IMG/VR virus record: IMGVR_UViG_3300033074_001909
Location: 42,333-106,332 of that record
Strand: one strand, 5' to 3'
Source: a virus
Taxonomy: Duplodnaviria > Caudoviricetes
DNA: 64,000 nucleotides
The position numbers and the translations under genes were made by a program. Below, in pieces: positions 9,971 to 64,000 of this stretch. The notes beneath the pieces were generated by a model. It saw nothing but the letters and a program-made list of their open reading frames with translations, searched no databases and was not told the DNA's origin. Each line of letters starts with the position of its first letter. Position 1 is the first letter of the stretch.

Positions 9971-10068
9971 CGAATTTGCGGTGCGGAGTAGACTGGCTGG
10001 CGAAACGGGCTCCTCGACCAGAGGCCCCGTCAGGATCAGGCAGTACCTGATTTGGACGGGGCTTTTTT
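9967..10068 (+). promoter_or_regulatory. Promoter + conserved motif + terminator
   Basis: TTGACG-16 nt-TAGACT; GGCTCCTCGACCAGA at 10008-10022; GCCCCGTC...GACGGGGC then T6. Confidence 0.65.
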
Positions 10069-15256: not shown

Positions 15257-16777
15257 ATGATGAGACAAGTCTGGTTGGCGGTCCTGTGTCTGGTTGCCGG
15301 CTGGTTGCCGGCTCAAGATCAGCCTTTGCAGTACTCGACTCGCCTGCGGACGGTGGAGCCAGGTGGCAAGTGCCATGTGTGGTTTCCGCAGAACGTGGCT
15401 GGCCCGAGTGGTCGGGGATACATCCCCAAGCTGCCGGTCGGCTGGACGTACGCGTATCCGGGCACTTACGGACGTGGTTGGTCCGAGTGGCATCGCGGAT
15501 GGGCCTGGGAAATTCAGGTCGCGCGGGACGCGCAGCCAGGTGCGTATGCGCTCGATTTCATGGACCAGGGTCAACCAGTTCCCGGGCTGACGCCGATTGT
15601 CGTGACGGTCTGTGCGCCGGCTCCCAAACGGCGCCTGAAGCGGCTGATGTCCGCCACGACGGCCGACCTGCAGTTTTACTTGGACCAGGGTTACGATCTG
15701 GAACTGGGTCCCTTTGAGTTTGTGATTACTACGCCGCTACAAGTGCCGGACGGGGCCCGGATTTGTTCGACCGGTGCGGCTCGCCTAGTGCGGACCGCCG
15801 ACCGCCATCCCGAGAACCATCCTCACCATGAAATGTTCATTCCGGAGGGGCGCTTCACGCTCGAGCGCGTGATACTCACTCACGACGGCACCATGCCGGC
15901 GGAGCCGTTGTACCTGCACAAGTGGCCTCGTGATACCTCACCCACCTGCCCCAATGTGACGGTGACCCAATGCGTGATCGAGCGCGGTTACTTGGGCAAG
16001 GCCACGGAGTCGAACATGGCCGTGGAGCGGTGCCGGTTCGCCGGCGGCGGGACGGGCATCACGCCCCTGAACGGTCGGTACGACTACTGTGAGTTCACTG
16101 GTACTTCCCCGGATCAGAGCCACAGATTCCTGTGCTGGGGAGCCAATGGCTTGCTGCTCACGAATAACCGGTTCGCCGGCACCTCGCGGGGATTTGTGTT
16201 CCAAACGGGGGACGTCGTCGGAGCCGCGTTGCTCGACAACTATTGCACCGGGATCCGCGGGGGTAGCGGCAACGCGAATGAGTGCCTCCTGTTTGAAGCG
16301 GGCACTGGATCGCCCATTGCCTGCGACGACGCACATGGTTGCCGAAATAACCTGGTCGTCGACCTGTGGATCAACGATTGTGCCGGGCCCGGCGTCTCGC
16401 TGTACGGATCCGGGATGCACGACAACCAGTTTTGGGGCGTGGACGCGCACACGGATAACAGCAGCCTGTACGTGATCGCGATCGGCGACGGACAAATCAC
16501 ACGTAACCAGTTTCACAATTGGCAATGCACGGGAGGAGTCGTGTTCCACGGTGATGTGGGACAGGTCACTTTCGGTAATATGCAGCTGCTCGAGTCACAG
16601 CAACGGCGGGGCAACCAAGGGCCGTTTGCACCTGTGATTCGGCACTTCAACGAGCATTATCCGTTCGACCTGGATGAAGAGGCGCGACAAACTGGCGTAT
16701 TCACGCTCTCGGGCGTCGGGCTTCTAATGCCCAACCGGACGTACGTGCCAATCGATGAGCTGACCGGGAAAAAATGA
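15257..16777 (+). CDS. Secreted right-handed beta-helix (pectin lyase-like) protein
   Basis: Signal peptide; repeated 'xxCxF/xxNNxF' beta-helix-like units. Confidence 0.5.
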   Translation: MMRQVWLAVLCLVAGWLPAQDQPLQYSTRLRTVEPGGKCHVWFPQNVAGPSGRGYIPKLPVGWTYAYPGTYGRGWSEWHRGWAWEIQVARDAQPGAYALDFMDQGQPVPGLTPIVVTVCAPAPKRRLKRLMSATTADLQFYLDQGYDLELGPFEFVITTPLQVPDGARICSTGAARLVRTADRHPENHPHHEMFIPEGRFTLERVILTHDGTMPAEPLYLHKWPRDTSPTCPNVTVTQCVIERGYLGKATESNMAVERCRFAGGGTGITPLNGRYDYCEFTGTSPDQSHRFLCWGANGLLLTNNRFAGTSRGFVFQTGDVVGAALLDNYCTGIRGGSGNANECLLFEAGTGSPIACDDAHGCRNNLVVDLWINDCAGPGVSLYGSGMHDNQFWGVDAHTDNSSLYVIAIGDGQITRNQFHNWQCTGGVVFHGDVGQVTFGNMQLLESQQRRGNQGPFAPVIRHFNEHYPFDLDEEARQTGVFTLSGVGLLMPNRTYVPIDELTGKK

Positions 16778-16929: not shown

Positions 16930-17994
16930 ATGACCACGACACGGAGCGAACAACTGTTCGCCATCGTCGACCGATTCAACCAAATCCATCGCGACTGGGC
17001 GGAGTTCGACACGAACAATCCCGAGCCCACGGAGTTGTACTGGCGCGCGCTGCAGGCCGTGCTGGATACGTTCGAAGGGGGCGACCTGCCAGCGGACTGC
17101 CGCCCCATGGCCGCCGCCGTCTACAAACTGGCCCAAGAGCGGGCCCGTTACGATGCCTCCGGGATGACCACGGTGCCGCAGTCGCTGTTTGCCGCGCGCG
17201 AGGAACTGGAGCGGGTAGCCCGGGCCGCACGCTCGCCGCTTGAGCGTCCCCATCGGGAAACTATTCAGGAACTGGCCAAGCAGAACGTCCCCCATGAGCA
17301 GATTGCCCGTATTTGGGGCCTGCGCCGCCCGGACGGTACGGGCCGGGCCGACCTCGTCCAGCAGGAACTGAATCAGCCCGGTTCGGTGATCGGGCCCAAC
17401 TATGTGCATCCCGAGGACCGCATGGCGCATGACCAAGTGCTGGTCGAGCGCCGCAACTGGCAGGCTTTGGAGGTGCTCAGCCAGAAGGAGCAGGAACGGA
17501 TCGAGGCGGATCAGAAGCCCTGTCCCGAGACGCCGCGGGAACTGTGGCTGATTGGGGTCAGCACGGCGCAGGCGGCGAGGATGTTGCGGCAGCCGCAAGA
17601 GCAGGTGGCCCGCCTGTGGGACGAGTTCGAACGGGAAAAGGTCGCGATTCAGACGGCGCAGGAGCGCCCGGCGCCCGTAGCGCCGCCCGCACCGGCGGTG
17701 GTAACTCCGCCGCCGGTGGCCGAAGCGGCCACGGCCGATCCGCTGGACGACATGCTGGGCGCAGCCGGCGACAGTCCCTACGCGCAGTTTGACGGCTGGA
17801 GCGAGCAGGAACTGCGGATCGAAGCCAAACGCCTGGGAATTCGCCTGCGAGGCCGCTTCACGCGTGAAACGCTGATGGATCGCATTTTGGCCGCGGATCC
17901 CACGGCAGAATTGGTGGATGACGACAGCGTCGCGGGCGTCGATGAGTTCGACCACGAGGGCGTGACGGTCGGCGAGACGGAGGAACCAACGTAA
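16930..17994 (+). CDS. Hypothetical protein with C-terminal HeH/Rho-N-like motif
   Basis: 'WSEQELRIEAKRLGI..TRETLMDRI'. Confidence 0.55.
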   Translation: MTTTRSEQLFAIVDRFNQIHRDWAEFDTNNPEPTELYWRALQAVLDTFEGGDLPADCRPMAAAVYKLAQERARYDASGMTTVPQSLFAAREELERVARAARSPLERPHRETIQELAKQNVPHEQIARIWGLRRPDGTGRADLVQQELNQPGSVIGPNYVHPEDRMAHDQVLVERRNWQALEVLSQKEQERIEADQKPCPETPRELWLIGVSTAQAARMLRQPQEQVARLWDEFEREKVAIQTAQERPAPVAPPAPAVVTPPPVAEAATADPLDDMLGAAGDSPYAQFDGWSEQELRIEAKRLGIRLRGRFTRETLMDRILAADPTAELVDDDSVAGVDEFDHEGVTVGETEEPT

Positions 17995-22559: not shown

Positions 22560-22573
22560 TTGGCTCCGCATTC

Positions 22574-22628
22574 GTTGAATGCCCGCGCAGTGGCTTCGTT
22601 GCTGCGAGTACAGGTCGACCCACGCCTT
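22574..22628 (+). CRISPR. Solitary Cas12m-type repeat + 20-nt guide-length segment (plus strand)
   Basis: GTTGAATGCCCGCGCAGTGGCTTCGTTGCTGCGAG at 22574-22608 (stem CGCAGT/GCTGCG kept), then TACAGGTCGACCCACGCCTT. Confidence 0.75.
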
Positions 22629-22808
22629 TGGGCAAGAGCCAAGCCTCTGCGCGGGCACTTCGACCGGTTGGGACGAGTTCTGCGCAGCCCAAATCCGGAA
22701 CGCTCGCAGAAACAAAGCCCCTGCGCGGGCACTTCGACTTGTCGACAACCTGGATCCGGTCGAGCACCGGCTCTCGCAGGAACAAAGCCCCTACGCGGGC
22801 ATCATCGC
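22629..22808 (-). CRISPR. Orphan mini-array: 3 repeats, 2 spacers (34 and 38 nt)
   Basis: Repeats at 22773-22808, 22703-22738 and 22629-22664 are reverse complements of the main-array repeat, e.g. GTCGAAGTGCCCGCGCAGGGGCTTTGTTTCTGCGAG. Confidence 0.9.
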
Positions 22809-23008
22809 TCTAACCTGGGCCGGCCTTCGCTCCGCGGTCGACTGAGTCCCCCGCGAATCGACTTCGGTAGTTTCGCCGCGCCCGCATCACGCAGCCATTC
22901 CGACAGCGATTTACCTTCCTTCGCGGCCGCCGCCAGAAAGGCCGTCCACCAATCCTGCGGCGCCGTGATGTTGCGGCGGATCGTATCGTCTCCATGGGGC
23001 TCTGTCAT
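22802..23008 (-). CDS. Small ribbon-helix-helix regulator
   Basis: 'RRNITAPQDWWTAFLAAAAKEGKSLSEWLRDA'. Confidence 0.65.
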   Translation of the reverse strand: MTEPHGDDTIRRNITAPQDWWTAFLAAAAKEGKSLSEWLRDAGAAKLPKSIRGGLSRPRSEGRPRLER

Positions 23009-23021
23009 GCCGGTGATCCTA

Positions 23022-25398
23022 TCACGTCGTGACCGTTATCTGCAGGGTGGCTTTCTCGCGAGTCCAGCCATGCTGCCGCAGCATCCGCGCCTCGAGCAGT
23101 TCCACGCGGTCAAGGCACTGCTGGAGAAATCCCTGTGGCAGATCATAGTCGAGCCCCCAGAACCACTTCACAACCAGCCAGGTTTGGCGGTCGGTGATTG
23201 GTTTCGCGAGTTCCCGCTCCAGGCGGGTAGAAATAGCTTGCGTGGTGGTCATGGTTTGGACGCTCCATTGATTCGGAGTAGGTGCAGCTCGAATCGGTCC
23301 TTCTCTTCCTGCGTCGCTGGCCGAATCTCAACCGTTTCGCCCGCCTGCAAGGCTGCTTGCACATTAGACCAGTCCGACCGAATGCCTCCTGCGGTGTACA
23401 AGCACGACATGAGCGTTGCGCTGTCGTGGTAAAAATGCTCGCCGATGTAAATCAGTTTCATGGTCTTCATGGTCATGCTCCTTGTGAAGAAAATATCGAC
23501 CGTTGGCCGCGAATGGCCGGCGTCAGCATGCGGGCCGCTCCCCTCGCGGGTCGCGGAAACCACCGGCGACGGTCGTCGCGCCGGATCGACGCCGCAGCCC
23601 ACCTGCCGGACCGCATGACCGGGTGGCCGTCAGGATTGCGGGCTGCGGCGGTTTAGTCAGGTATGCTGGCGGCATCCGCGTACCGGAACGCAAACCCCGG
23701 CCCAGTGGCATCGACGAGATACCGGATGCCGGAATCTCCACGATAATTCCGAGAGCCCATCGACCGGGGCACCGGCGTTGAGCCCGGTGACGTGGTGTCC
23801 CGTGGGCATACACTCGATCAGCATCCGCTCGAACTCATCCGTCGGAAGGATACGTGCCACGTCGCGTCGTGGCACATCGGTGCGCCGCGAGCCGAAGCCA
23901 ATATTCCGGCGCCCGGTGATGATGAGTTCGTCGCCAATACGCTCGATGGTGTCACTGATTTTCATGATTCTCTCCGTGATCGAATGCCGCCTTGGGACGG
24001 CCGCCGGGCTCACCAGAGCCCGGCGGGGCATTAGGCCGCGAAAGCGGCCCCCTCTGCATCTACCCGTCGTACTTGACGCGCACAACGCAATGCCAGCCGG
24101 CCGCACCGTGCCAGGACATGGGCTCCTCGTCCTCCTGGCCGTCGACGTCCGGCGACGTGTCAGCCATGCCGCACTCGCCGCAAAACGTCAGGCCGCAGCC
24201 GTCCGGTGCCTCGTAGACTCGATATCGCGTGGCCATGGTCGTCTCCTTGTGTCTCTGCTACTCAGCCGCCTGGATGATTTTGGCGACATCCAGATCGCCG
24301 TTGCACGCCGCGTAAATCGGATCGCCATCCGTGTATTCTTCGCCTGGATCGTCCAGGCTGTCTACCATTCGCTCGGCAGCAGCGGTTACCTGCTCGGGCG
24401 TCAGCTTGGCCGCCACAAACGCATTGGCGGTGGCGGCATCCCAAACGCCAATTTCACACCACGGACGCGCCGTAGCGGCGGTGAAACCGTAATCGATCCA
24501 GTTCTCGGCCTCGTCCTTCGGGTGATTGCCAGTAAACATGCCGCCGTGGTTGCTGAGCATTTCCATCATGTCTTGAAGATCCCGATCGATGGTCGTCATG
24601 GTCGTGTCTCCTCGTGAAAGAAAATCTGGTCGCCGAGCCGCCCCATCGGCTACACAATGTTCGTCGCCTCAGGAATCACTCCGTAGCGATTCAGCAGCCC
24701 CACACGCCGTCGCGCGGCTGCTTCTGCCTGCTCTTGCGATGGATAGCCGCCGTTGCACCACGTGGCGTCGCCGATGTCGATGCGGTAGCCAAAACATCCA
24801 GCACTGTAGCCTTCCGGATTCTCGATGATCGTGATGTTGGCTTGCGGGCGTCGTTCGGTCATGGTCGTGTCCTCGTCTTCGTGTTGGATAAAACCGGGGC
24901 GGCCCGAAGGCCGCCCCTCCGTGGGCGTCAGAGCGACTCTACCGCAGCGAAACGGCTGCGGTAGTCCGCCGGGGTCATTCGCTCGGCTGTTACTGCCCCG
25001 GCTGCGTCCAGCCGGAGCAGCGTGTACAGCCAGTCCCTCCGGCCGCGATAGCCGGAGGTGACGATGATGATGCCCGTCGAGGGCACCCGAAAGACAGCGG
25101 CGGCGAAATCGTTGCCGCCGCTCGACGAGGTGGCTACGACCCCGGTCGGTTCGACCGGTGGCAGTTCTTTCGTGGCAACTGTCTTCGCCTGCTCGGGGCA
25201 GGCGAAGCCGTGGAACGTTCCCGCGTCATCTGCGTGCCACAGCACGCAGATGCCTGGGGACAGGCCAATCTTACGGTCGCCGATCGTGGCGACCTGGCCG
25301 TCGGCGTCGACTGCCAGCGACACACGCCGGCAGTTCGCGCCGGCTTGGCCGGACACGCTTTGCCCCGCCTTAATTCCGAGCAACATATTCGTGGACAT
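23022..25398 (-). other. Cluster of small minus-strand genes (23022-23252, 23249-23476, 23657-23965, 24060-24236, 24258-24599, 24650-24862, 24928-25398), putative early region
   Basis: Each gene has a similar GGAG/GAGGA...ATG ribosome-binding context; hairpins in the intergenic gaps. Confidence 0.65.
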
Positions 25399-40974: not shown

Positions 40975-43900
40975 ATGGCGACAGGATTCGCTGATCGGTA
41001 TGCGGCGGAATTTGAAGAGGACAAGCATCCTCGCGACGAAGACGGCCAGTTCACGTTGAAAGTCTCGAAGATCCACGGCCCCAAGGGGGAAAAGTTCGAG
41101 AATCTGGGCGGCAAGCAGCAAGACCTGTTTGCTTTCCGTGGCGAAAAGGGGCAGATGAACCTCTTTTCCGATGCTGGCGTACCGGATGAATTGCTGCCGA
41201 AGCACATCCGCAAGGGCAAGCCGGACACCTACGCCAAGGACGAAGATCCACCCGACTCAGGCCCGCAGTGGATGACCCTGGGCGGCGGCGCGCGGGCCCT
41301 GGTCGCCGAGGACGGCACGATCCTGCAAGGCTGCGAAGGCGTCAAAGGCTACGACCTCGACGAACTGGACGAGACCCGAGACGAGCGGGCCGCCAAGCAA
41401 GAGCAGGCCGAGGACGCGGGCTGGACGAGCGCCAAAAGCGACCGGGCCCGCGAGACATGGGAAGCCTTCAAGAACAGCGACCCGACGCACCCACACTTCA
41501 TCGGCTTGGTCCGGCACGGTGGTAAGTTCCACGCCTTCGACGAGAGCGCTGGGAAACTGCAGGAGCAGCTCGGCATCGGCGATGGGCAGACGGCCGAGTT
41601 CGACGAGGACAAATTGCCGCATCACATGGAGCGGCTGATTGAGAATGGGCATCGGGTAGCCGTGATCGACCGGGCCGAGGACGGGACGCCGGATTTGGAC
41701 AGCGACGCGGACCCCGAGGCCCAGCAGGCGGTGGCAGAGGCCCACGAGGATGTGGCGGAGCAACAGGAGACCAAACCGGCTGCGGCCGGCTTCGGCATTG
41801 AGCCCGTCCATCCCGAGCGACTGAAATTGACCCAAGACGGCCGCGAGATCGGTTACATGAACTTGCGCGTCATGGGGGACCGGGGCTACATCGACGATAC
41901 GTCGATTCACGCCGCATCGCGCGGGCAAGGCGTCATGCGGCAGCTATGGCCGCAGATCGAGCAGCACTTCCGTGATCAGGGAGCCACGTCCATTCGCGCG
42001 GACGTGGTCGATCCAGCGGTAGGGGAAAAGGTCTGGGGACCGCTGGGCTTCCAGAAGGAAGGCATGTCGGGGCCGGTGGAGGTGTATCGCAAGCACCTGG
42101 ACAGTCCGGCAGCCGATTCGGAACAGGCGACCGACAAGCCACCTAGCACCAAGCGTGGTCGACTGCCAAGCACGGACGACCCTGCGCATCACGCCGTGGC
42201 GCAGCGGTTCGGTATCCCTCCGGAAACCGTCAAGGAGATCCTCGAGACGCATCCGGATGAATTATCCCGCCGCGATAACTACTTCCCGCCGAACAGTCAG
42301 CGAGATGAAGTGGTCGGCCCGACACTGGACTACGAGCCCCATCCTCTGGGATCGGCCAAAATCGATTCGAGTCAGCACAAGGCCGGCGAGACCGACAATG
42401 CCTACGTGGATTTCCTGACGGAGTTCGACCCGCAGCAACTGAAACTCAGTGAGCCTGAAGACGGCATGAGCAAGAGCCAGTCCGTAGCTGCCTATGCGGA
42501 CTGGATTAAGGCGGGCATGGAACCGCCGCCTATCAGTGTGTTCGACAGTGCGAACGGAAATGGGAATCTCGTGTCGACAAACCGCCGTCGCGTGCTGGCT
42601 GCGCAGCAAGCTGGCGCCGACAAAATCGTAGGCTGGCACGGGAAGAATAATCCCGAGACGGGATTGCCGCTCAAGCTGGGCGATATCAAGCGAGCTTATG
42701 AAGAAGCCAAGGGGCAGGGCGCGGCAGCATCGGAATCCGACCAGCAGGAGCAGACGCCGGCCGACACGGCCGGCGAAGCGGACGACTGGAACGCCGCCAC
42801 CCAGTCCCCGGCCGAGGCCACCGATGACCAATTGGCCCGGGCCATCGAATTCGCCAGCCACCTGCACGGCCACCATCAGCGTAACGCCCAGAGCGGCCAG
42901 ATCACTCCCGAGCAACTCACCTCCCTGCACGACATGATCGACGGCCACGTGGCCACGATGCAGGCCGAACTGGAAAGGAGAAAGCATGCACAAGACCAGC
43001 CCGCAGACCGAGGAAACGCAGCCGCCAGTCCAGGCGGAACCGATGACGCATCAGCAACTGGCGCAGAAACTCGACCGACAAGCGGAACTGCTGCAGCAGA
43101 TCCTGGCCCGACTGGATCACTTGGAACGCGGCACCATGATGCGGGCCAGCGCATCGCCCAGGCCCCCGGCCCCGTCCGCAGCCTCTTAGAGTCGCTCCAT
43201 CGACTGCGGGACACCCGCAAGACGGGGCAAGTCGAGACGAAGGAACTGGGGCACGAGTACGCCCGGGAAATGTACGATCACTTGAAGTCCCTCCGGCACG
43301 CCGGGGACGACTTTGGCGAGGTGCATGACCTGTCGCAGGAACTGGGCCACGGGGCGATCGGGTACGCGTCCCCCGCCGGCAATGTGGCGATGGTCCCGCC
43401 GAAATTCAAGGGACAGGACTGGCAAGTGCGGTACACGCTGCCGCATGAGTCGCAGCAGGCCCCGGCTGCAACTCCCGCCGACGCGCCCAGTGAGCCAGCC
43501 GGCCAGGGCGACGAACTCGAACTGCTCGACGACGTGATGGAAGGCGACGCCTACGAAGGCGATCTCCCCGCCAGCGACGCCGGAGGCGGCTTCCCGTGGG
43601 AAGATGCCGGGCAGGATGAACCGCCGACCGCCCCGTCGCAGCAGCCAGCGTACTCCGACGCATGGCGCGACCTGCACGCGCAGCATCAGGACTTGGTCTA
43701 CCGCACCATCCCGCATCGGGAGCAGCAGTATCGGCAGGCAGTATCCCAGGCCCAACGCGACCAACAGCGGTTTGCGGCGAAGGCCGCCGAGTACCAGTCA
43801 CAGGCGGATCAACTCGAGAGCGTCACGCCCCGCGATCCGGCTCACGCCGTGCGCATGAAGTCGGACCGGCCTTACGCTGAGGCCCGCCGGCGGATCGACA

Positions 43901-46529: not shown

Positions 46530-47279
46530 ATGACCGCCCCGCAATTATTTGCCAGCTACTGGCCCGAGGGACCGCATCGCTGCTACTACTGCGGCGGGCG
46601 ATGCGACGAGACGCATCGAGCTGCTGATCTGGTCCAGTCGTCGTTTACCGCACGTGATACCGTGGCTGGCGGTGAGTACGTGTGCCCTGGCTGCATCGCT
46701 GCGATGGACGAGAGGGCCACGATTACGCTGGCCGACGGCGAAGTGCGCGAAGGCCAGCGGGTCCGCTGCTACTCCTGGGTCATCACTGCCGAAGCGGCGA
46801 TCGCTGCCACCAAAGCTCATCGCGCGTGGCTGACAGGAGCGTGCCTGTCGCCTCCAGAACCGCCCTACGTCATCTCGATCAGCGACAGCGGGCAACGGCA
46901 CCTGCTGTATCGTGCCGTCGTATGCCATTCTCGCGAGATCATTACCGCCACTCTGGAGGGCGAGCGGGTAACATTCACACCCTATGAGCTTGACGAGCGG
47001 TTGACGCTGTGTCGCAAACTGATCGCGGCAACCGGCAAGCCGGCTCTGTCCGAAGCACCGACTGCACGATTCGGCATGTCGGTAGTCTCGCATCACGACG
47101 ACGAATCACTGATCTCCACGTGGCTGGAATGTCGCGAGCAACCGCTGTCTCGCCTGGCGGCGTGGCTCTCGCCTCCCAAGGAGGAATGCTTACTTGAGTT
47201 CCCAGCACCAGCAGCTCCCGCCCCCACTGCCTGTGCTCGACACCGAGCAGTTCAGGCAACGTTTAGCTGGCTTGATTGA
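46530..47279 (+). CDS. csf1: Type IV CRISPR Csf1 (Cas8-like large subunit)
   Basis: CxxC...CxxC zinc finger; 'PPEPPYVISISDSGQRHLLY'; operon context. Confidence 0.8.
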   Translation: MTAPQLFASYWPEGPHRCYYCGGRCDETHRAADLVQSSFTARDTVAGGEYVCPGCIAAMDERATITLADGEVREGQRVRCYSWVITAEAAIAATKAHRAWLTGACLSPPEPPYVISISDSGQRHLLYRAVVCHSREIITATLEGERVTFTPYELDERLTLCRKLIAATGKPALSEAPTARFGMSVVSHHDDESLISTWLECREQPLSRLAAWLSPPKEECLLEFPAPAAPAPTACARHRAVQATFSWLD

Positions 47280-47667
47280 CCAGCGATCCGAAGTGGACGC
47301 CGAAGATTTCGCCAGCGTGGCGGCGTGCGCTATCCATTTTGTCTCGTCGCTGCCGATTGTGTTCGGCGAGCAGCTCGAGCGCACCACACTGTGGGATAAG
47401 ATCGGCGCCGCCCTGGATACCGCTTACGCCAAGACCGCCGCCGATGATTGCGACTTCTTTATCAGTCGCGTGCTGGAGTCGATCCTGGCTTCTCCGGCGG
47501 CCGTCGCTCGCTGTGAGGCCATCGGCCAGGTGATAACGTGGCTCTCCGCTGCGCCGACTGAGATGCGGCACGCGTGGCTGCAGTACATCGCCACGCACCG
47601 CTATGCCGTGCTCGTACGCGCTCGCATGGCCTGGGAGCAGCAGAAGGAGGCTCGCGCCAATGCCTGA
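47194..47667 (+). CDS. cas11: Type IV-B small subunit (Cas11-like)
   Basis: Small helical protein between csf1 and csf2; RBS AAGGAGG. Confidence 0.6.
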   Translation: MSSQHQQLPPPLPVLDTEQFRQRLAGLIDQRSEVDAEDFASVAACAIHFVSSLPIVFGEQLERTTLWDKIGAALDTAYAKTAADDCDFFISRVLESILASPAAVARCEAIGQVITWLSAAPTEMRHAWLQYIATHRYAVLVRARMAWEQQKEARANA

Positions 47668-48544
47668 GACCTATACGATCCTCTGCGTGAGTGAAGCCGC
47701 CTCGCCAATCACGCACATGAGCGGCAGCGCCGGCAATGAGGCGATTATCGCTCGTGCGCCCGTGATGACGGATCGCGGGAAACTGTGGATACCATACCTC
47801 TCAGGTAATGCCCTGCGCCACCGTTGCGTGCGAGATCCAGGCGTGGATTTCCTTTTGGATCTTTACGAACTGCGAGGCAAACTTACACTGCCGCAGCTCA
47901 ATTTCCTGCGGCACGGCGGAAATCTCACGGAGTCCACCGCACACGAGAACACGGCCCGCATCGCCGAGATGAAACGCACTTGGCCGCTACTGCGATTGCT
48001 GGGTGGCTCGTTGCCAAACCAGATCCTGGCCGGCAGCCTGCAAGTCTGGCGTGGTGAACTGGTGTGCGAGGAAAACCGCCAATACCTGGCCACGCTCGGA
48101 GACTGGCTGCCCACGCGGCGACTCAAGGCTGCCGAGGAGTTCATCGGGAACTACCAGTACACGCGCGGCGATGCCGCGAAGTCCGGCGAGGCTCAGGCGG
48201 AGGAGGATCGCGAGAGCAATCTGATGATCTTCGCTGGCCAGCAGGTCAATCGTGGCTCGCTGTTTGTGCATGGCTTCGTGGCGCCTCACGCGTCGCGCGT
48301 CGAACTGGGCGCGCTGCTGCTGTCGCTCCGACTCTGGCAGTCCCGCGGCGGGACGATCGGCGGACAAGCGGCGCGCGGCCACGGCCGGCTGGCGATGTCC
48401 CTGGTCGGTGCGATCGACCAGTCGTGTGTGGACGAGTACGTCGAGTACGCGATCAGCGTGCGAGATGCGGCGATCGCGTGGCTTGAGGACTGCTTTGCGA
48501 AGCGAGCCGACAAGCCAGCGAAGACAAAGAAGGTGAAGGCATGA
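47660..48544 (+). CDS. csf2: Type IV CRISPR Csf2 (Cas7-like RAMP)
   Basis: 'SPITH', 'PYLSGNALRH', 'LRLLGG', 'IGGQAARGHG'; RBS AAGGAGG. Confidence 0.85.
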   Translation: MPETYTILCVSEAASPITHMSGSAGNEAIIARAPVMTDRGKLWIPYLSGNALRHRCVRDPGVDFLLDLYELRGKLTLPQLNFLRHGGNLTESTAHENTARIAEMKRTWPLLRLLGGSLPNQILAGSLQVWRGELVCEENRQYLATLGDWLPTRRLKAAEEFIGNYQYTRGDAAKSGEAQAEEDRESNLMIFAGQQVNRGSLFVHGFVAPHASRVELGALLLSLRLWQSRGGTIGGQAARGHGRLAMSLVGAIDQSCVDEYVEYAISVRDAAIAWLEDCFAKRADKPAKTKKVKA

Positions 48545-49206
48545 GCCTGCTCGTGATCGCGCACCTATCGTCGCCGCTGGCCGGTGATGCGCCGATGCTG
48601 GACGGACTGCTCGAGTTCGAGATGTCGCAGAGACTCGGTGCGGCGTATAAGGTCCGCCGCGATCAGCCTGCACCGCCCGCCGGAGCGATCCATATTCCGA
48701 TGCTGCGGCGCGGTATCGGCGGTTGGAGTGTTCCGCTCTGCTCGTCACCGATCTACACCGCCGAGAGTGATCGGCATGAGTACATCGGCAAGCGGCTGGC
48801 GGTCGAGCACGCCAGTGATTTACGCGAGGATGCACGGCTGGTCGTGGCGATGGGCAACGCGACCTACAAGTCATATCGCCTACCGCTGCGAGTGAGGAAT
48901 GTGTCACGCGTGGCGTGGTTCTGCGAGGGGCATCGATCGCCGATTTTGAAGCTGCTCAAATCGGTACACGCGATCGGCCGGAAGCGGTCAGATGGATACG
49001 GTCGCGTGGCGCGATGGACTGGCGAGAACGTGGATGGCAATCATCACTGGTACGGCGAGAGCGAGCACGGCCCGGTGCTCATGCGACCGCTGCCGTTTGG
49101 CGACTGGCTGCCGCGCAGCCTGCTCGGCGCGAAGCGAGATTTCGGTGCGGTCGTCGCGCCGTACTGGCATCCTGATCGCTATGCGGAGATTGTGGTGCCA
49201 TGCTGA
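48541..49206 (+). CDS. csf3: Type IV CRISPR Csf3 (Cas5-like RAMP)
   Basis: 'LDGLL', 'IGRKRSDGYGRV', 'MRPLP', 'PYWH'. Confidence 0.85.
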   Translation: MSLLVIAHLSSPLAGDAPMLDGLLEFEMSQRLGAAYKVRRDQPAPPAGAIHIPMLRRGIGGWSVPLCSSPIYTAESDRHEYIGKRLAVEHASDLREDARLVVAMGNATYKSYRLPLRVRNVSRVAWFCEGHRSPILKLLKSVHAIGRKRSDGYGRVARWTGENVDGNHHWYGESEHGPVLMRPLPFGDWLPRSLLGAKRDFGAVVAPYWHPDRYAEIVVPC

Positions 49207-56106: not shown

Positions 56107-58082
56107 TGGCGAAGAACCGGCCCCCCCGTGTCGTGCAGTTCGTGACGTCGCAGGGCAGCGTCTACGACGTCGACGAACAAGGCCGCACGACGCGCACCAA
56201 GTCGCCGCATGCCGGCCACGACCGCGATGACGTGGGACGCAAGGAGCGGTCCGATCAGACGTACTTCGTCTCGCAGGACGATGCCCAGCGGGTCGGCATG
56301 CACAACTCGCTGAACCGCGAGGCCCGCCCCCGCTTGCTCGTCCGCGGGAACGAATTGCTGCTGGTCTCCTGGAATGCCAAAGAGGGCCGCTGGGGCACGC
56401 ACGGGTCGCCAATTCCCCTGTCGCAGGTGCCGGAAGTCGGCCGCGCGCCGCTCGAGTTATGGAACGTCGCCCCCTACGTACTGGCGCCCAACGGCATTGA
56501 CGGACTTTCTCCGAGCAAAAGCCATCCGGGCAGTCCGATCACGGAGCTCCGCCACGCGCGCGAATCGCAGGTAGCGCCCCCGCTGCCGACACCGCCGTCG
56601 GATGTGCCCACCGCGCCGGTCGCCACGCCGCCCATGAGCGAAGGACGGCCGCCGATCGAGCCGCCGGTGACGCCGCCGCCCAGTTCCCGTCCGCCCCGCA
56701 GCGACGCCCGGCCCCCCGCCTGGGGTGACCTGGCACCCTTGCTGGCCAATCTGCTGCAACCGAGCGCCACGCCGTTCGCGGGCCAGTCGGAACCGCTCAA
56801 TCTGCGGTCGATCCTGACGACGGTGGCCGGCCAGTCGGCAGCGCCGCCCACGCGTCCCCGTACGGGCCTGGACAGCGTCCAGACAATGCTCGACGTGGCC
56901 GGGGTGTTTGATCCGACGCCGCTGGTGGATTCGATCAACGCCGCGATTTCGCTGGGTCGCGCGGCACGCAGCCGCAATCCAATCGAGCGGCGCGAGCACT
57001 TTACGGATGCCGCCATCAGTGCCGTGGCGGGCGGGCTGCCGTACTGGGGCGATAGCGCCAAGATTCCGCGGTTCTTGCGGGCCGCGAGCCACTCGGCCGG
57101 CCAGGCGGCCCGGGATTTCAAGACCAGTCGCTTGGCAACGCCCGTGAGTGGCAGCCCGCCGCTGCCGCCCCGTGGGGGCGGCACTCCGCCGCCCGTACCA
57201 CCACCGCCCCCGGGCTCACCGGGCGTCCCACCGCCGCCCGGCGGTGGCTTGCCACCCATGCCACCACCTGGCAGCGTACCACCGGGAGCGCCGCTGCCGC
57301 CCCCGGGTGGCACTCCGCCACCGGGATCACCGCCACCGCCCCCGGGCTCACCGGGAGGCCCACCGCCGGGTGGGTTTGGTGGCGGAGGGGGATGGCGAGC
57401 GGCAGCGCCGTTTCTGATCGGGATGGCGGCGGGCGGACTGGCGGGGATGCTGCCCGGGACGCCTCCGCAGCTACCGCCTCGCCGCTATGATTTGCCGGAC
57501 CTCGTGACGAATCCCGCGCAGCGCGGCATCGCGCACGACATGGGACGTATGGCCCGCCGGCAATTGCTGGGCTTCGGGGGCGTGCTGGCCAATCCCATTA
57601 ACCCGCTGGCCTGGGGTAATCTGGCCAAAGCCACTTTCGATAACATCCGCGAGTTACCGGCGGCCTTGTTGAATTGGGCGGAGGCCCTTAAGAGTTCACA
57701 AGAGCGGTTGCGGATGTTCAATGGTCAGTTGGCCAATACCTTCATGGAGTCGGAATGGCGCGAGATGATGCGCGACTTCCGCTCCGCAGGCCGCACGGCC
57801 GGCACGACCACGAATCTCGTGAGGGCGCTGGATGAGTTCAAAGACGACCTGCAGCCGATGAAGGACGCGCTGACCAACCTGACCAATGCGCTAGTAACGG
57901 CTGGCGTGGAAGGCGCAAACGTCGTGTACAACCTGGCCATGATGGCAACGAGCCTCGACCAAGTGGTGGAGATTGCGAATATCCTGCTCGGAAAATACGA
58001 CAGCAGCGAGAAGCCGCCCGCGCTGGAAATGTGGGAGAGCATCAAGGACCGGCCGCCCGGAGGGAGGCGCCCCCGCACATGA
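56106..58082 (+). CDS. Protein at tape-measure position: Pro-rich, with PT-TG-like segment and helical C-terminus
   Basis: Follows the chaperone; 'LDVAGVFDPTPLVDSINAAISL..DAAISAV..LPYWGD'. Confidence 0.5.
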   Translation: MAKNRPPRVVQFVTSQGSVYDVDEQGRTTRTKSPHAGHDRDDVGRKERSDQTYFVSQDDAQRVGMHNSLNREARPRLLVRGNELLLVSWNAKEGRWGTHGSPIPLSQVPEVGRAPLELWNVAPYVLAPNGIDGLSPSKSHPGSPITELRHARESQVAPPLPTPPSDVPTAPVATPPMSEGRPPIEPPVTPPPSSRPPRSDARPPAWGDLAPLLANLLQPSATPFAGQSEPLNLRSILTTVAGQSAAPPTRPRTGLDSVQTMLDVAGVFDPTPLVDSINAAISLGRAARSRNPIERREHFTDAAISAVAGGLPYWGDSAKIPRFLRAASHSAGQAARDFKTSRLATPVSGSPPLPPRGGGTPPPVPPPPPGSPGVPPPPGGGLPPMPPPGSVPPGAPLPPPGGTPPPGSPPPPPGSPGGPPPGGFGGGGGWRAAAPFLIGMAAGGLAGMLPGTPPQLPPRRYDLPDLVTNPAQRGIAHDMGRMARRQLLGFGGVLANPINPLAWGNLAKATFDNIRELPAALLNWAEALKSSQERLRMFNGQLANTFMESEWREMMRDFRSAGRTAGTTTNLVRALDEFKDDLQPMKDALTNLTNALVTAGVEGANVVYNLAMMATSLDQVVEIANILLGKYDSSEKPPALEMWESIKDRPPGGRRPRT

Positions 58083-59827
58083 CCGCGACCAATATCGTGT
58101 ACAACGGCGTGCCCATCGCCAACGTGCTCACCGAGGGCATTGACCACCAAGTCGTGTTCGACTCGAGCAACGTCAATCCGATCGCCGTACGCGTGACGGT
58201 GTCGGGCACTGGTTTGATTCACCGGGTGTCGGCCGGCATTCCCAGGACCATCGGTGTCAGCGCGGGCCCCGACCTAGCGGGTGGATTTAATGTGCTGATT
58301 GACGACTTGATGCAGCCGGGTCGCGCCTTTGCGATGTATCTGGGCGACACCGCGCTCTTTGATGTCGTGCCGGGGCATGTCCGTCCGGGCCTGTCCAATC
58401 CCAATGCAGGCGACGGGCTGCCGATCCGGCGCACTGACGTGAACCACGGGCCGATTCCGAGCATTCACGTACTGGAGACCATCAGCGGCAACACGATGAA
58501 AATCCAGTTCCGCATCGTGATGCACCTGCCTTACACCGATCGCGATGGCACCAAACTGGGCGGCGCCGTGTCCTTCCGCTGGTGGATCGCAGAGGATATC
58601 GATTACCGGGATGCGACCACCACGCGCACCTATCACGGCACGCTGCGCGTGCGGCACCTGGGTCACAACGTCCTGACGGAGATTCGCAATAACTTCGTGT
58701 TCCCGCCGCTGCTGTCCGGTTTTCAACGCCAGCGGATTTCGCTCAATCAGAAGCCCAACGGCCTGGAACTGGATTTCACGGTCACGGACAAAGAGGTATG
58801 GGCCGCGGCGCCGTCGCCAGCCACGAGGTGGGAGGGTTACCAAACCCAATTCACCGCCGAAAAACTGCTGCTGGTGTCCGAGGTGGGTGTCACGGTGTGG
58901 GGCGACAAAAAGACGCCCAAGAATGACCTGCTGGTGCTGTGTCGCAAGATTCTGGACACCAAACTGCATCGGCTGGATATGAGCGCCCAGGGCCAGACGT
59001 TCCTGCGGTCGCTGCGTATCCGGGATTCGTTCACCGACAACAAGATCGAGGCTTCTGCGTCGGTCAACATGATCCCCTCCAACAAGATTATCTGGAATCT
59101 GGAGAAGGGAAATTTCGGCCAGCCGCTCAATGTGGGTTTTCCGTCGTCGCCCAGCGAGTTTCCGACATACAACAAGGAACTCGCACGCACGGTCTCGCCA
59201 ACGGCGTGCATCAAAGGGCTGTTTTTGGCGGCGTTACAAGATCCCTTGCACGTGACAGACGCGTTCCGCTATCCCGAGGTGGTTGAGGACGCCAGGCAGG
59301 TTGTGTTTGGCGCATTGGACTGCGGCGAATCGGCACCAACCGAGCCAGAGATTCCCGCCGAAACAGACCGCAAAGTCAGTTCCGAGCATCTCGATTCGGC
59401 CTACACGGTGTATTGTCTCACCAGCGAGACCGACAAGAACTGGGGCACCATCGCCCTGCCGGTAGGCAAGTCCAGCAGCGGCCAGGATACGGCCGCCATC
59501 CTGAAACTGCATCAGCCGACCGCCAACCTGCGGGTGCGGCTGGAAGCCGAGCGGATCAATCAGTGGCCGACGCTGCCCAGTCCGCAGGAGTATTCCAAGT
59601 TGGGCTGCCAGTTCACGCCGCTGCGGACGCCGATCACGGGCTCCTCGACGCTGAGCGGCGATTACCGCAAGACGCTGTATCACGTATCGGCCGAATTGCA
59701 TTTCGGCCAGAACAAGGAAGCCACGGGTGGTATTCCGGCTGGGCTCTTACCGTATCGGGTGGCTGGCCAGGACAATGTATACGTGATCCCGTCGTCGGTG
59801 TTCAGCGACAAGATTCTGTTTGCGTAG
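58079..59827 (+). CDS. Putative tail/baseplate protein
   Basis: ATGA coupling with upstream gene; beta-rich; position. Confidence 0.5.
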   Translation: MTATNIVYNGVPIANVLTEGIDHQVVFDSSNVNPIAVRVTVSGTGLIHRVSAGIPRTIGVSAGPDLAGGFNVLIDDLMQPGRAFAMYLGDTALFDVVPGHVRPGLSNPNAGDGLPIRRTDVNHGPIPSIHVLETISGNTMKIQFRIVMHLPYTDRDGTKLGGAVSFRWWIAEDIDYRDATTTRTYHGTLRVRHLGHNVLTEIRNNFVFPPLLSGFQRQRISLNQKPNGLELDFTVTDKEVWAAAPSPATRWEGYQTQFTAEKLLLVSEVGVTVWGDKKTPKNDLLVLCRKILDTKLHRLDMSAQGQTFLRSLRIRDSFTDNKIEASASVNMIPSNKIIWNLEKGNFGQPLNVGFPSSPSEFPTYNKELARTVSPTACIKGLFLAALQDPLHVTDAFRYPEVVEDARQVVFGALDCGESAPTEPEIPAETDRKVSSEHLDSAYTVYCLTSETDKNWGTIALPVGKSSSGQDTAAILKLHQPTANLRVRLEAERINQWPTLPSPQEYSKLGCQFTPLRTPITGSSTLSGDYRKTLYHVSAELHFGQNKEATGGIPAGLLPYRVAGQDNVYVIPSSVFSDKILFA

Positions 59828-59847
59828 TCGCTGCGGCACAGCCTGCA

Positions 59848-59955
59848 CTCGCAGAAATCAAGCCTCTGCGCGGGCACTTCAACGATCCCGACCGGGAATA
59901 CGTGATGTCCGGACTTGACCTCGCAGACACAACGCCTCTGCGCTGGCATTCGCGC
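59848..59955 (-). CRISPR. Orphan mini-array: 2 repeats, 1 spacer (36 nt)
   Basis: Repeats at 59920-59955 (GCGCGAATGCCAGCGCAGAGGCGTTGTGTCTGCGAG) and 59848-59883 (GTTGAAGTGCCCGCGCAGAGGCTTGATTTCTGCGAG). Confidence 0.9.
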
Positions 59956-60148
59956 TATCTTCATAGTCCGCCACTACGCTCGTCAACACTGGACGGGAGT
60001 TCAGTAGATAGCGTCGGGCCAGCGGCCTACGATACCAGTGCCATCGAAGTCCCCTTGCACAGCTCACCACGATGCGAATTTCCCTGCGCCTCGCGCTCGA
60101 ACTTCGGTGGCCATCGTGGTGAGCGTTTTTTTGCGCTAGGGCCCAGTC

Positions 60149-60343
60149 ATGCGCTGGACAATCCGCGATCTATTCTACGTGCTGACGATCACCGCCATGG
60201 CCATCGCCTGGACGCTGGACGCCCGACAGAACTACGGGTCACCGACCGTCGGTAAAGTGTGCGAGGAGTGCGGCAGCGATGGCAACGCCCACACCCTGCG
60301 CTGCCCCGTGATTGCTCGTCTTATTCTTCACTCGGAGAACTGA
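60149..60343 (+). CDS. Small membrane peptide of a Planctomycete-type 'R(F/W)(S/T)IRDL' family
   Basis: MRWTIRDLFYVLTITAMAIAW followed by CxxC. Confidence 0.55.
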   Translation: MRWTIRDLFYVLTITAMAIAWTLDARQNYGSPTVGKVCEECGSDGNAHTLRCPVIARLILHSEN

Positions 60344-60345
60344 TC

Positions 60346-61422
60346 ATGAAACGTCGCGCCTTTACTCTCGTCGAGCTGCTAGTGGTCATCGCCATTATCG
60401 GGGTGCTGGTCAGCTTGCTCTTGCCGGCCGTGCAGGCGGCTCGCGAAGCGGCCCGCCGTATGTCGTGCTCGAATAACCTCAAGCAGATTGGACTAGCCGT
60501 CCATAACTTCGTGTCCGCCCGCGACACCATGCCCCGCTCCGGGGAACACCTCGTGGAAGTGGGCAACGTGACCTACAAGACGCAATGCTTTCACGGCCCG
60601 CTGTTGGTGCTGCTGCCCTACCTGGAGCAGTCCGCGCTGTTCGACAAGTTCGACTTGACGGTGCGCTACAACGAGGGAGCTAACCTGGCCCTGGTGCCGC
60701 TGGGAGCCGGTGGCGCCGCCACGATCAAGGCCTACCAGTGTCCCACCAATCCCGAGCGGTGGATTACGGACAAAGAGGGATTCACGGGCACCGATTACGC
60801 GCCGCTCCCTTACGTGGAAATCAACGCTGCGGCGGCCGCGGCCACCGGCTTGCCGGCTGGCTTGCATCCGGCAGCGCTCACGTCCCACCCGTACCGGCCG
60901 GCATACTACAAGACCTACTCGGGCGCTCATCCCAGCATCAGCCCTAGCAAAGCCTTTCAACTGAAAACGTCGGCCGAGCTCGCCGCGCTGGGCAATTTCA
61001 ACATCTACTTCGGTGGCGCCACGTTCGCGGACATCACCGACGGATCGAGCAATTCCATCCTGGTGTACGAGGACACCGGCCGCAACGAAAAGATGGACGG
61101 CACAGGCAGCCCGTCGCCAAATAACTACCTGGATCCAGTCGACAATCAGCCCCGCCGGCACTGGCGGTGGGCGGAGCCCGACAGTACGAGCGGCTGTTCC
61201 AAGCAGATCAACAACAACCGCACCCCGCGGGGTGGCCCGCCCACCTGCCCTTGGACGGCACACGATTGTGGCCCCAATAACGAATGGTTTTCCTTCCATC
61301 CAGGTGGCGCGCAAGTCGCCATGGCCGATGGCTCGGTCCGCTTCGCCAGCGAAACCACGGACCTGAAAGTCGTGTTTGCTCTGGGCACCCGCAAAGGCGG
61401 AGAATCGGTGACCCTGGATTAG
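60346..61422 (+). CDS. DUF1559 prepilin-type N-terminal cleavage/methylation protein
   Basis: 'AFTLVELLVVIAIIGVLVSLLLPAVQAAREAARR..C.NNLKQIGLA', 'DGSSN', 'HPGGAQVAMADGSVRF'. Confidence 0.95.
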   Translation: MKRRAFTLVELLVVIAIIGVLVSLLLPAVQAAREAARRMSCSNNLKQIGLAVHNFVSARDTMPRSGEHLVEVGNVTYKTQCFHGPLLVLLPYLEQSALFDKFDLTVRYNEGANLALVPLGAGGAATIKAYQCPTNPERWITDKEGFTGTDYAPLPYVEINAAAAAATGLPAGLHPAALTSHPYRPAYYKTYSGAHPSISPSKAFQLKTSAELAALGNFNIYFGGATFADITDGSSNSILVYEDTGRNEKMDGTGSPSPNNYLDPVDNQPRRHWRWAEPDSTSGCSKQINNNRTPRGGPPTCPWTAHDCGPNNEWFSFHPGGAQVAMADGSVRFASETTDLKVVFALGTRKGGESVTLD

Positions 61423-61424
61423 GA

Positions 61425-61453
61425 TTTACAAGAAGCAATTCATATTGCACAAT
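61425..61453 (+). promoter_or_regulatory. Promoter of the cas12m-like gene with internal palindrome
   Basis: TTTACA-17 nt-CACAAT; GCAAT-TCAT-ATTGC overlaps the spacer; RBS AGGAGG. Confidence 0.55.
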
Positions 61454-61488
61454 GGTCGCTTTCTGTAACCCATTCCAGGAGGAAGGCC

Positions 61489-63507
61489 ATGCCCATCGTC
61501 TACAGTTATCGCGCCAAGGTCCGGGAGCAGGATCGGCCGTTGATTATCGGGCAATTGCGAGCGGCCCATCGCTACCGCAATCGCTTGTGCGAGATCGAAT
61601 TGACGCGTCGTCAGCAGGTCGATGCGGCGTTGCGAGAAGTCTGCCCGCGCCTGCTGGAAGTGGAAGCGGAACTGGCGGCCCTCGACGGCGAATTGACCGC
61701 CGAATACGAGCGGGTCAAGAAGGCCAACGTGCAGGAGCGATCCCGCAAGCGTCCTCCCCAGGAGCAGCAGCAGCGGATCGCGGCCCTCAAGGCGCAACTC
61801 AAGGCCTTGCGAGCGGAACGCAAGACGCTGCGCACGGGTCTGTTCGGCATGTCCGAGCGAGTAGACAAATTGCGCAAGGCCGCTGCGGAATTGCATGGCA
61901 AGCCGGCGGAGACGGTAGCCACGATGCAGGGTCTGCTGTGGGAGGAGGGTTGCGACGGTTTGCGAGCGGCCCTGGCGGCGCGCCTGACAGCCGAGGCCGG
62001 CCAGAAGCGAGCGCAGGACGACGCGATCCGCGAGGAGTTGGCCAAACTTGTCGAACAGGAGAGCAACACGCCCGCCGCGGCGCGCCGCCTGGCGGAGATC
62101 GACACCGCCGCCAAGCAGGCCGCCAAGGACGCGCGACATCAAAGCGGTCTGTACTGGGGAACGTACCTGACGGTGGAGGAGGCGGCCGCGTCTTTCCGCA
62201 CGGGGGCGCCGCCGCGGTTCAAGCGATGGGAAGGACGGGGCCTGCTGGGTGTGCAATTCGTGGGCGGACTGTTGGTGGAAGATGCGTTGCGGGGTGCCAC
62301 CAAGTTTACCATCCGGGATGGCGCCAAGCCGAAGTGGCGCGAACTGCAAATGCGGATCGGCCAGCAAGAGGACGAATGTGCCACGCTGGATGTGATCTAC
62401 GATCGACCCCTGCCGGAGGATGCCACGATCAAGTGGGCCAAGCTGGCCTATCGCAAGGTGGCCAGCCAGGATCACTTCTATATCAATTTCATTCTGGATC
62501 GGCCCGGAGGGTTCCCACGGGATGATCGGGCCACGGAAGGGACGGCAGCGGTCGACATTGGCTGGCGCAGGCTGGACGACGGCAGCATTCGGGTGGCGTA
62601 CTGGATGGGCTCGGACGGCGAGGAAGGCTCGCTGGAGATCCCGGCCGGGCAGGCCCAGCGGCTACCGCGATGCGACACGCTCAATTCGGTGCGGTCGCTG
62701 CTGTTTGACGGCGCGCGGAGCGTACTGGCTCGCTGGCGAAAGATCGAGCAAGAACGCGACTCCGAACCGCCCGAGTGGCTGCGCGGGCAAGCCATGTGGT
62801 GCAAGTTCGAGATCCAAGGGGCGCCTGCCGGTCGTCAGGATCAATTGCGGCGGTGGCTGACCCATTTCCAAGGGCTGTGTGCCGCCTGGAGTGACATTCC
62901 GGCCATGCCGGAATGGCTGCAGACCTTGACCGACCACGCACACGCCTGGAAGTCGCATGGCAAGCTGGCCCAGGTAGTCTACGAGTGGCGCAATCAGCGG
63001 TTTGCGGGCGATGAGCACCTGTACGGGGTGTTTGAGGCGTGGCGGCAGCAGGACAAGCACCTGTGGGAGTGGACCGCGCATAACCGGCAGCGGTACTTAA
63101 ACTGGCGATTGGATTGCTACCGGGTGTTTGCCAGGATGCTGGCTCGGCGGTATCGCACGCTGGTGATCGAGGACGTGGATTGGCGGGCGTTTTCGGTCAG
63201 GCCGACGGCTGATGAAGCGGACGAAATGAAACTGGCCCGTGCCCGCAAGCACGTCACGGCGCCCAGCCTGCTGGAGAATTGCTTGCGGTATGCGTTCGGC
63301 GCGGCTGACACCAAGGACTTGCCAGCCAAGAACATGACGGCCACGTGCGCGGTATGCGGGGAGTTGTGCGGCGAGACCGACCGGTGGAAACTGGTGCTGG
63401 AGTGCTCGCAGTGTCGATCGAGTTTCGATCAGGACCGTAACGCGTGCCGTAACCTGTTGCGAGCGGCGGGGTGCGATGAAAAGTCCGCCAGTCTCTCGCA
63501 AGGCTGA
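61489..63507 (+). CDS. cas12m: Type V CRISPR effector, Cas12m-like (V-M, formerly V-U1)
   Basis: 'QLRAAHRYRNRL', coiled coil, 'GLYWGTY', 'RWEGRGLLGVQ', 'DRPLPEDATI', RuvC 'AVDIGWR' (D356), 'VIED' (E561), CxxC..CxxC, 'DQDRNA' (D649); adjacent array. Confidence 0.85.
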   Translation: MPIVYSYRAKVREQDRPLIIGQLRAAHRYRNRLCEIELTRRQQVDAALREVCPRLLEVEAELAALDGELTAEYERVKKANVQERSRKRPPQEQQQRIAALKAQLKALRAERKTLRTGLFGMSERVDKLRKAAAELHGKPAETVATMQGLLWEEGCDGLRAALAARLTAEAGQKRAQDDAIREELAKLVEQESNTPAAARRLAEIDTAAKQAAKDARHQSGLYWGTYLTVEEAAASFRTGAPPRFKRWEGRGLLGVQFVGGLLVEDALRGATKFTIRDGAKPKWRELQMRIGQQEDECATLDVIYDRPLPEDATIKWAKLAYRKVASQDHFYINFILDRPGGFPRDDRATEGTAAVDIGWRRLDDGSIRVAYWMGSDGEEGSLEIPAGQAQRLPRCDTLNSVRSLLFDGARSVLARWRKIEQERDSEPPEWLRGQAMWCKFEIQGAPAGRQDQLRRWLTHFQGLCAAWSDIPAMPEWLQTLTDHAHAWKSHGKLAQVVYEWRNQRFAGDEHLYGVFEAWRQQDKHLWEWTAHNRQRYLNWRLDCYRVFARMLARRYRTLVIEDVDWRAFSVRPTADEADEMKLARARKHVTAPSLLENCLRYAFGAADTKDLPAKNMTATCAVCGELCGETDRWKLVLECSQCRSSFDQDRNACRNLLRAAGCDEKSASLSQG

Positions 63508-63628
63508 GGCGGTAAGTAGTTGCGGCGAGAATAGGGATGACGGCGAGGGGCGGTCGTGAGGCGGCAAGCGACCACCTCTCGCAAAGATCGCGGTGGCGTA
63601 TGTCGTGTCCATGGTTTACGTACGTGCC

Positions 63629-64000
63629 GTTGAAGTGCCAGCGCAGAGGCGTTGTTTCTGCGAGACCGGATAATTACACATCGGTCGAGATCGAGCAGGC
63701 GGGTTGAAGTGCCCGCGCAGAGGCGTTGTTTCTGCGAGGGGTGCCGATTAGCCCATCGCTTGACCGGCCTACGGATGTTGAAGTGCCAGCGCAGAGGCTT
63801 TGTTTCTGCGAGTCGACCGTCTGGGAGGATGAGCCGCGGGGTGCCGTCGTGTTGAAGTGCCCGCGCAGAGGCTTTGTTTCTGCGAGCCTACGAGGACCTA
63901 GAGACGTACGTCGTCTCATCGACGTTGAAGTGCCCGCGCAGAGGCTTTGTTTCTGCGAGCGTTCTGGATTCGAGCAGCTGGGCGGACAGATCTTCGTGGA
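63629..64000 (+). CRISPR. CRISPR array, at least 5 repeats (36 nt) with 37-38-nt spacers, probably continuing past the window edge
   Basis: Repeats at 63629-63664, 63703-63738, 63777-63812, 63851-63886 and 63924-63959; consensus GTTGAAGTGCCCGCGCAGAGGCTTTGTTTCTGCGAG. Confidence 0.97.

Follow-up and report, generated by a model that had tools for sequence, protein, structure and literature searches.

A two-repeat locus in a Planctomycetes-type phage as a likely secondary array for phage-encoded Cas12m (type V-M)

Type V-M arrays are known for MmCas12m2, GoCas12m and MsCas12m (PMC10442227, PMC11013384; Wu et al. 2022 cited therein). Cas12m systems use no tracrRNA, and their crRNAs, which are 50–60 nt long, are cut inside the repeat (PMC11013384). 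The crRNA of Cas12m2 has a 36-nt scaffold with a pseudoknot and a 20-nt guide which forms a 17-bp heteroduplex (PMC10442227), and the 5' 7 nt of this crRNA (-36 to -30) are disordered in the structure (PMC10442227). The locus described here, referred to below as the mini-array, is found in a 64,000-nt stretch of a phage genome (the window, positions 42,333 to 106,332 of the IMG/VR virus record IMGVR_UViG_3300033074_001909), and we consider it likely that the locus is a secondary CRISPR array for the type V-M (Cas12m) system encoded by the phage itself. It resembles the known type V-M arrays in its 36-nt repeat, its pseudoknotted scaffold, the order of 5' repeat and 3' guide and the lack of a tracrRNA, as well as in having no adjacent cas1/cas2 and in being carried by a mobile element. 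Unlike them, it stands apart from the main array, at a distance of 3.7 kb and on the other strand, has just two repeats and lies in a virion-gene region. The phage Cas12m, known here from sequence, is about 60–95 aa longer than the solved Cas12m proteins, and has D/E/D at the RuvC positions.

Virus-borne mini-CRISPR arrays with one or two spacers serve inter-virus conflict (reviewed in PMC11656645). The phage shares with them a one-spacer array in a viral genome and a main-array spacer with a 31/35 self-match; those mini-arrays, however, borrow host Cas proteins and have host-identical repeats (PMC11656645), whereas here the effector is phage-encoded and no host array with this repeat was found in the genomes searched. 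The closest phage-borne case is the MvCas12m of myxophage MV-1, which likewise has D/E/D and an array next to the effector gene, lacks cas1/2/4, and gave no protospacers when these were looked for (bioRxiv 10.64898/2026.09.14.751636). Only one array is described there, while the present phage carries dispersed secondary arrays and scaffold clusters. The same 2026 preprint terms its case of a phage-borne Cas12m the first, and phage Cas12m is nearly undescribed in the literature searched (bioRxiv 10.64898/2026.09.14.751636; PMC11656645). To this the record adds a phage with arrays on both strands, strain-variable spacers without adaptation genes, and a co-resident type IV operon. Racr (PMC10651486) and the cr-like RNAs (PMC10120712) are similar in that they are repeat-derived elements away from a main array, some of them degenerate, but they differ from the mini-array, which has a full-length strain-variable spacer and no complementarity to the phage's own genes.

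The phage record and its Cas12m system

The source is a 106,332-bp record of a Planctomycetes-type phage, which occurs in runs of 13 studies (wastewater, sludge, freshwater). Among its products are a large terminase, a major capsid protein and a DUF1559/N-methyl protein, the last of a kind typical of Planctomycetes. Its terminal 76 nt are identical (record 1-76 and 106254-106329) and run through a CRISPR repeat and spacer, and the record is therefore probably a closed circle of about 106,253 bp, judging from these ends, though it is classed as "linear, 75% complete". The features discussed in this study are collected in Table 1.

Table 1. Positions of the mini-array, its neighbours and the other repeat-bearing and effector loci of the phage (window coordinates unless marked as record coordinates)
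Feature	Position	Strand	Repeat copies	Remarks
Other dispersed array	22573..22808		2 minus-sense, 1 partial, 1 solo on opposite strand	+ sense solo repeat facing minus-sense two-spacer array
Type IV effector operon (csf1, cas11, csf2, csf3)	46530-49206			Inside virion-gene region
Converging 598-aa ORF	58031..59827	+		Coding-type GC3; TAG at 59825-59827
Intergenic remainder, 20 nt	59828..59847	-		From terminal repeat to TAG of converging ORF
Mini-array, both repeats	59848-59955	-	2	
Second, terminal repeat	59848..59883	-		34/36 to main-array consensus; 51.9 bits; scaffold intact
Spacer, 36 nt	59884..59919	-		Guide GTCAAGTCCGGACATCACGTATTCCCGGTCGGGATC
First repeat (crRNA sense)	59920..59955	-		28/36 to main-array consensus; 49.8 bits
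Candidate promoter	59957..59986	-		TTGACG (59986-59981), 18 nt, GAAGAT (59962-59957)
Hairpin then U7, terminator-like for + strand operon	60062..60131	+		-34.3 kcal/mol, z -4.0
cas12m, type V-M effector, 672 aa	61489..63507	+		D/E/D at RuvC positions (alignment)
Main CRISPR array, start	63629..64000	+	13	Crosses record junction; 13 repeats in all
Repeat cluster	Record 15385-15713	+	7	Outside window
Repeat cluster	Record 17645-17839	+	4	Outside window

The 672-aa protein encoded 1.5 kb from the mini-array matches the PDB Cas12m (E 1.6e-40), Cas12m2 (4.5e-14) and the PADLOC Cas12u1 model (1.2e-75), so that the mini-array has a Cas12m encoded in the same genome as its cognate effector. Weak matches of SMC type point to a coiled-coil-like stretch around residues 30-210 of the protein. 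A scan of metagenomes with this Cas12m returned only distant relatives (at most 39% identity) and no near-identical strains.

The main array begins 122 nt past cas12m. The one informative target match in the system comes from a spacer of this array (record 255-289), which agrees with the phage's own genome in 31 of 35 positions (window 10005-10039, minus strand); the mismatches fall on guide positions 4, 7, 29 and 35, and the 5' flank ends in ACTGC. This could be a tolerated self-match, or the spacer may have been acquired from a close relative; such a match is as expected if the spacers stem from close relatives, and it thus points to rivalry between related phages. The repeat core was searched for in 185,579 species genomes, where only single chance matches were found, with no arrays and no Planctomycetes among them, and there is no cas1 or cas2 in the phage record. 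With neither these genes nor a host array bearing the repeat, spacer gain stays unexplained, which counts against reading the mini-array as a working secondary array.

The same phage also carries a type IV effector operon without an array of its own, and we found no paper describing the pairing of a type IV effector operon with Cas12m in one phage.

Repeat scaffold and layout of the mini-array

Counting by a regular-expression census and by a covariance-model census, which agree, the repeat family of the phage record comprises 30 full copies and one partial copy. When the repeats are aligned, columns 8-36 are conserved, while columns 1-7 are conserved only after a canonical spacer. A pseudoknot is predicted in which columns 9-11 pair with 20-22 and columns 14-19 with 29-34 (nine pairs). 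Across 26 copies, 97.6% of the cells pair, three of the pairs show compensatory changes, and none of 500 shuffles reaches the score. Sliding the pseudoknot partners abolishes the pairing, and the orientation taken here as sense is the only one that the G-U pairs allow. The layout GCC-N2-stem-GGC-N6-stem-N2 of the phage repeat recurs, in the sense of the gene and with other letters in the stem, in arrays next to distant Cas12m genes (L044 and L051, 27–32% identical). The architecture also agrees with the published crRNA of Cas12m2 (PMC10442227). On this evidence the repeat folds as a Cas12m pseudoknot plus stem, with a dispensable 5' end.

The first-pass annotation had described a mini-array with a 36-nt spacer, an intact second repeat and exactly 20 nt left before the stop codon of the converging gene, and its coordinates and sequences are correct; both repeats measure 36 nt, and the stop codon is a TAG. 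The locus is a genuine mini-array with its crRNA sense on the minus strand, as both repeats match the array beside cas12m. It consists of at least two direct repeats with a unique spacer of canonical length between them (36 nt, versus 35–38 nt in the main array), and the 17-nt repeat core has 12 matches in the window against 0.87 expected. The second repeat is intact, as had been proposed: apart from two positions it follows the consensus, and all nine scaffold pairs are kept. In the first repeat the 5' 7–8 nt are divergent, while the 29-nt scaffold is intact with 9/9 pairs. The fold of the whole minus-strand region is no more stable than that of shuffles (z = 0.07), and an Rfam search gave no match.

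The degenerate 5' end of the first repeat had been attributed to a transcription start at the point where repeat homology begins. A start at this point is not needed as an explanation, since all scaffold-only copies show drift at these 7–8 nt. One of them is the first repeat of the other dispersed array, which lies partly within the 3' end of an RHH-like ORF of 68 aa on the minus strand (22802..23008). The drifted nucleotides correspond to the disordered positions -36 to -30 of the Cas12m2 crRNA (PMC10442227). If the first repeat requires the scaffold alone, this would account for the drift of its 5' 7–8 nt; the second repeat would be required whole, for processing, and it is predicted to provide the 3' processing site for the mini-array spacer. 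The mini-array is best read as a minimal unit for one Cas12m guide, and makes a clean natural example of such a unit, in which a first repeat with no more than its scaffold is followed by a spacer and a complete second repeat. Having the intact repeat at the transcription-distal end is nevertheless the reverse of the usual decay of arrays, and counts against the locus being a secondary array.

Variation of the locus between strains

Contigs of four runs were aligned to positions 57000-63640. A 1052-nt contig from X3 extends from one flank to the other (59585-60636), and its main difference is a group of indels over 59888-59918, which indicates, on the basis of this alignment, that X3 carries a different spacer, of about 34 nt, at the mini-array locus. 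Indels of X3 seen over the spacer at depth 12.7 were set aside, as they represent main-array sequence forced onto the mini-array. A 4306-nt contig from X4, which belongs to a 98%-identical Cas12m (P0001), matches 59632-59880 and 59920-63639 and has 316 nt between the two segments versus 39 nt here; we infer that the extra 277 nt would fit about four repeat-spacer units. Several spacers of X4 and X5 are missing from this record. The spacer content differs between strains while the flanks are 95–100% identical, and the locus is retained in strains of several studies. On these contigs, the locus behaves as a spacer-variable CRISPR array, of which the one-spacer form is one allele, or possibly a product of assembly collapse.

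Transcription, the 20-nt tail and competing readings

The genes adjoining the mini-array are all on the plus strand, and the mini-array is intergenic by GC3. A minus-sense crRNA therefore needs its own promoter. About 105 nt of leader lie between the mini-array and the plus-strand terminator, and contain the proposed -35. The two hexamers TTGACG and GAAGAT are present where the first-pass annotation had placed them, 18 nt apart, and together match the sigma-70 consensus in 8 of 12 positions, which falls short of the scan threshold of 9/12, the promoters of the host group being uncharacterised. Sites of this quality have a frequency of 0.27 per kb on each strand, and one is present in about 4% of leaders after shuffling. 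No shared promoter motif was found upstream of the six repeat loci. The candidate promoter is plausible, judging from its sequence: it is rightly placed but is a weak match. Contigs of the metatranscriptome X20 map to parts of cas12m and to the main-array end, but neither to the mini-array nor to its leader, so that they are uninformative on its expression.

On the opposite strand, the hairpin followed by U7 sits 235 nt past the stop codon of the plus-strand ORF, which places the mini-array between the stop codon and the terminator of the plus-strand operon, in the likely 3' UTR. Transcripts of this operon probably cross the mini-array in antisense before they reach the putative terminator. 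The first-pass annotation had called the converging ORF a tail gene, which is at most a putative assignment; its 598-aa product has no relatives in IMG/VR and no usable match in the ESM Atlas.

A secondary type V-M array at this position would be expected to work as follows. The minus-strand transcript would start within the 105–190 nt between the mini-array and the plus-strand terminator, and its first repeat would be bound by Cas12m through the 29-nt pseudoknotted scaffold. Cleavage of the pre-crRNA would take place on the 5' side of the second repeat, and about 20 nt of the 36-nt spacer would be left as a guide, in line with characterised Cas12m. With this guide, the complex could bind DNA next to a PAM, be it in a rival phage, in a plasmid or in the host, and block the transcription or replication of that DNA; target cleavage may also occur, because the RuvC positions are D/E/D. 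What lies downstream of the second repeat, namely the 20 nt and the antisense of the neighbouring gene, would be a by-product and would hold no designed short guide.

The first-pass annotation had instead regarded the terminal repeat and the 20 nt behind it as a purpose-built minimal guide, the phage having trimmed its guides to the shortest functional length. Twenty nucleotides is indeed the guide length of Cas12m2, whose heteroduplex measures 17 bp (PMC10442227), the terminal repeat of the mini-array is an intact scaffold, and the scaffold clusters found elsewhere in the genome have segments of 10–30 nt which are identical in other strains. However, the X4 contig has one extra base at 59837, which makes its tail 21 nt rather than 20. 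There is also no terminator, processing signal or other RNA-end signal at the stop codon of the converging ORF, where a 7-bp hairpin is ordinary (z = 0.45), so the RNA would continue into the antisense of the ORF; nor did the covariance model detect a hidden scaffold in the tail. A target search with the 20-mer, which had been suggested as a check, gave no match in the phage at up to 2/17 mismatches, only chance-level matches at 4/20, and no exact match in IMG/VR. The comparison with a second segment of the same length (22609-22628) stands only if the boundary of the repeat is forced to 36 nt: the copy at 22629-22664 departs from the repeat in its last 12 nt, so that the true non-repeat interval measures 32 nt, and the two 20-mers share no sequence. 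With a variable tail, no target in the phage or IMG/VR and a second example that is a boundary artefact, the proposed trimming of guides is not supported at this locus, and we regard a purpose-built guide as very unlikely. Any Cas12m guide is in any case cut back to about 20 nt in the RNA, so 20 nt remaining in the DNA have no special significance, and the tail is most likely leftover intergenic DNA, which corrects the idea of it as a designed guide.

For the 36-nt spacer, likewise, neither the phage, with up to 4/20 or 2/17 mismatches allowed, nor IMG/VR, INPHARED or PLSDB yielded a target. IMG/VR was scanned for exact matches to either half of this spacer, to the 20-mer and the repeat core, and to a main-array spacer and two strain-specific ones, and no matches were found; BLAST of the array regions gave none below E 0.2 in cultured phages and, for the mini-array, none in plasmids. 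This lack of targets, together with the missing adaptation genes and the weak promoter match, would suit an inert relic, that is a fragment of the main array copied by recombination and neither expressed nor used. A relic seems quite unlikely to us, as both scaffolds have kept all their pairs, as the spacers differ between strains amid near-identical flanks, which fits an array that is used rather than decaying, and as the locus has been retained across studies. The position of the locus in a probable 3' UTR, and its almost full complementarity to the main-array repeats, could also suggest an anti-repeat RNA made from the plus strand, which would pair with the main-array pre-crRNA and lead to processing of RNase III type or to a late shut-off of the guides. 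This we hold to be highly improbable: characterised Cas12m systems do without a tracrRNA (PMC11013384), a strain-variable spacer has no role in an anti-repeat RNA, and the pattern of decay fits a sense crRNA, in that first repeats lose only the dispensable 5' 7–8 nt, and what is missing from the terminal repeat of the other array is the 3' part. Finally, solitary viral repeats are known as decoys (PMC10651486), and the type IV effector genes of the phage are real and array-less, so that the locus might be a decoy against a host or rival Cas12m (similar to an RNA anti-CRISPR), or provide guides for the type IV complex. Decoys, however, have neither a canonical-length, strain-variable spacer nor a cognate Cas12m in cis, and the repeat forms the Cas12m pseudoknot with only 2 nt after the stem, not a Cas6-type hairpin with an 8-nt handle. 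RNA anti-CRISPRs are solitary repeats without a spacer in effector-less viruses, while two repeats, a spacer and cas12m in cis are present here; and neither the spacer nor the 20-mer is complementary to the phage beyond chance, in contrast to cr-like RNAs of the CreA/CreR/scaRNA type. Both forms of this explanation appear extremely unlikely.

A secondary array of the Cas12m system remains the preferred reading, and a likely one, although the lack of a protospacer for the 36-nt spacer in the databases searched, the weak promoter match and the probable antisense transcription by the plus-strand operon count against it. Array identity, scaffold structure, the cognate effector and the spacer differences are shown by these data; transcription, processing, the class of target and silencing are inferred. 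An extension of this reading, which we offer as a doubtful conjecture, is that of a two-class network of Cas12m guides, in which spacer-variable arrays (the main array, the mini-array and 22629-22808) would act against rivals, and fixed scaffold-only clusters with their 10–30 nt segments would stand upstream of genes. The terminal scaffold, facing the late operon at its 3' end, would in that network be a docking or processing site for Cas12m that couples the effector to phage transcripts, and not a by-product.

At the other dispersed array, the solo repeat faces the minus-sense array over a 32-nt unique segment (window 22573-22664), and the facing repeat keeps only its first 24 nt. Three small ORFs on the minus strand (117, 76 and 68 aa; window 22802-23602) lead straight into this array, and the product of the 68-aa ORF resembles a ribbon-helix-helix protein (...KSLSEWLRDA...). 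The array is probably co-transcribed with this operon of small regulators.

The clusters at record 15385-15713 and 17645-17839 are intergenic and in plus sense, and all their copies (seven and four, respectively) are scaffold-only, with the conserved cores separated by just 10–30 nt. Both end 16–39 nt ahead of the start codon of the next gene, and they keep compensatory changes in the stem (CGCGG/CCGCG, U-A). Strains X3 and X4 have two of these segments in identical form, while canonical spacers vary. These clusters of fixed short segments are a more unusual feature than the mini-array itself.
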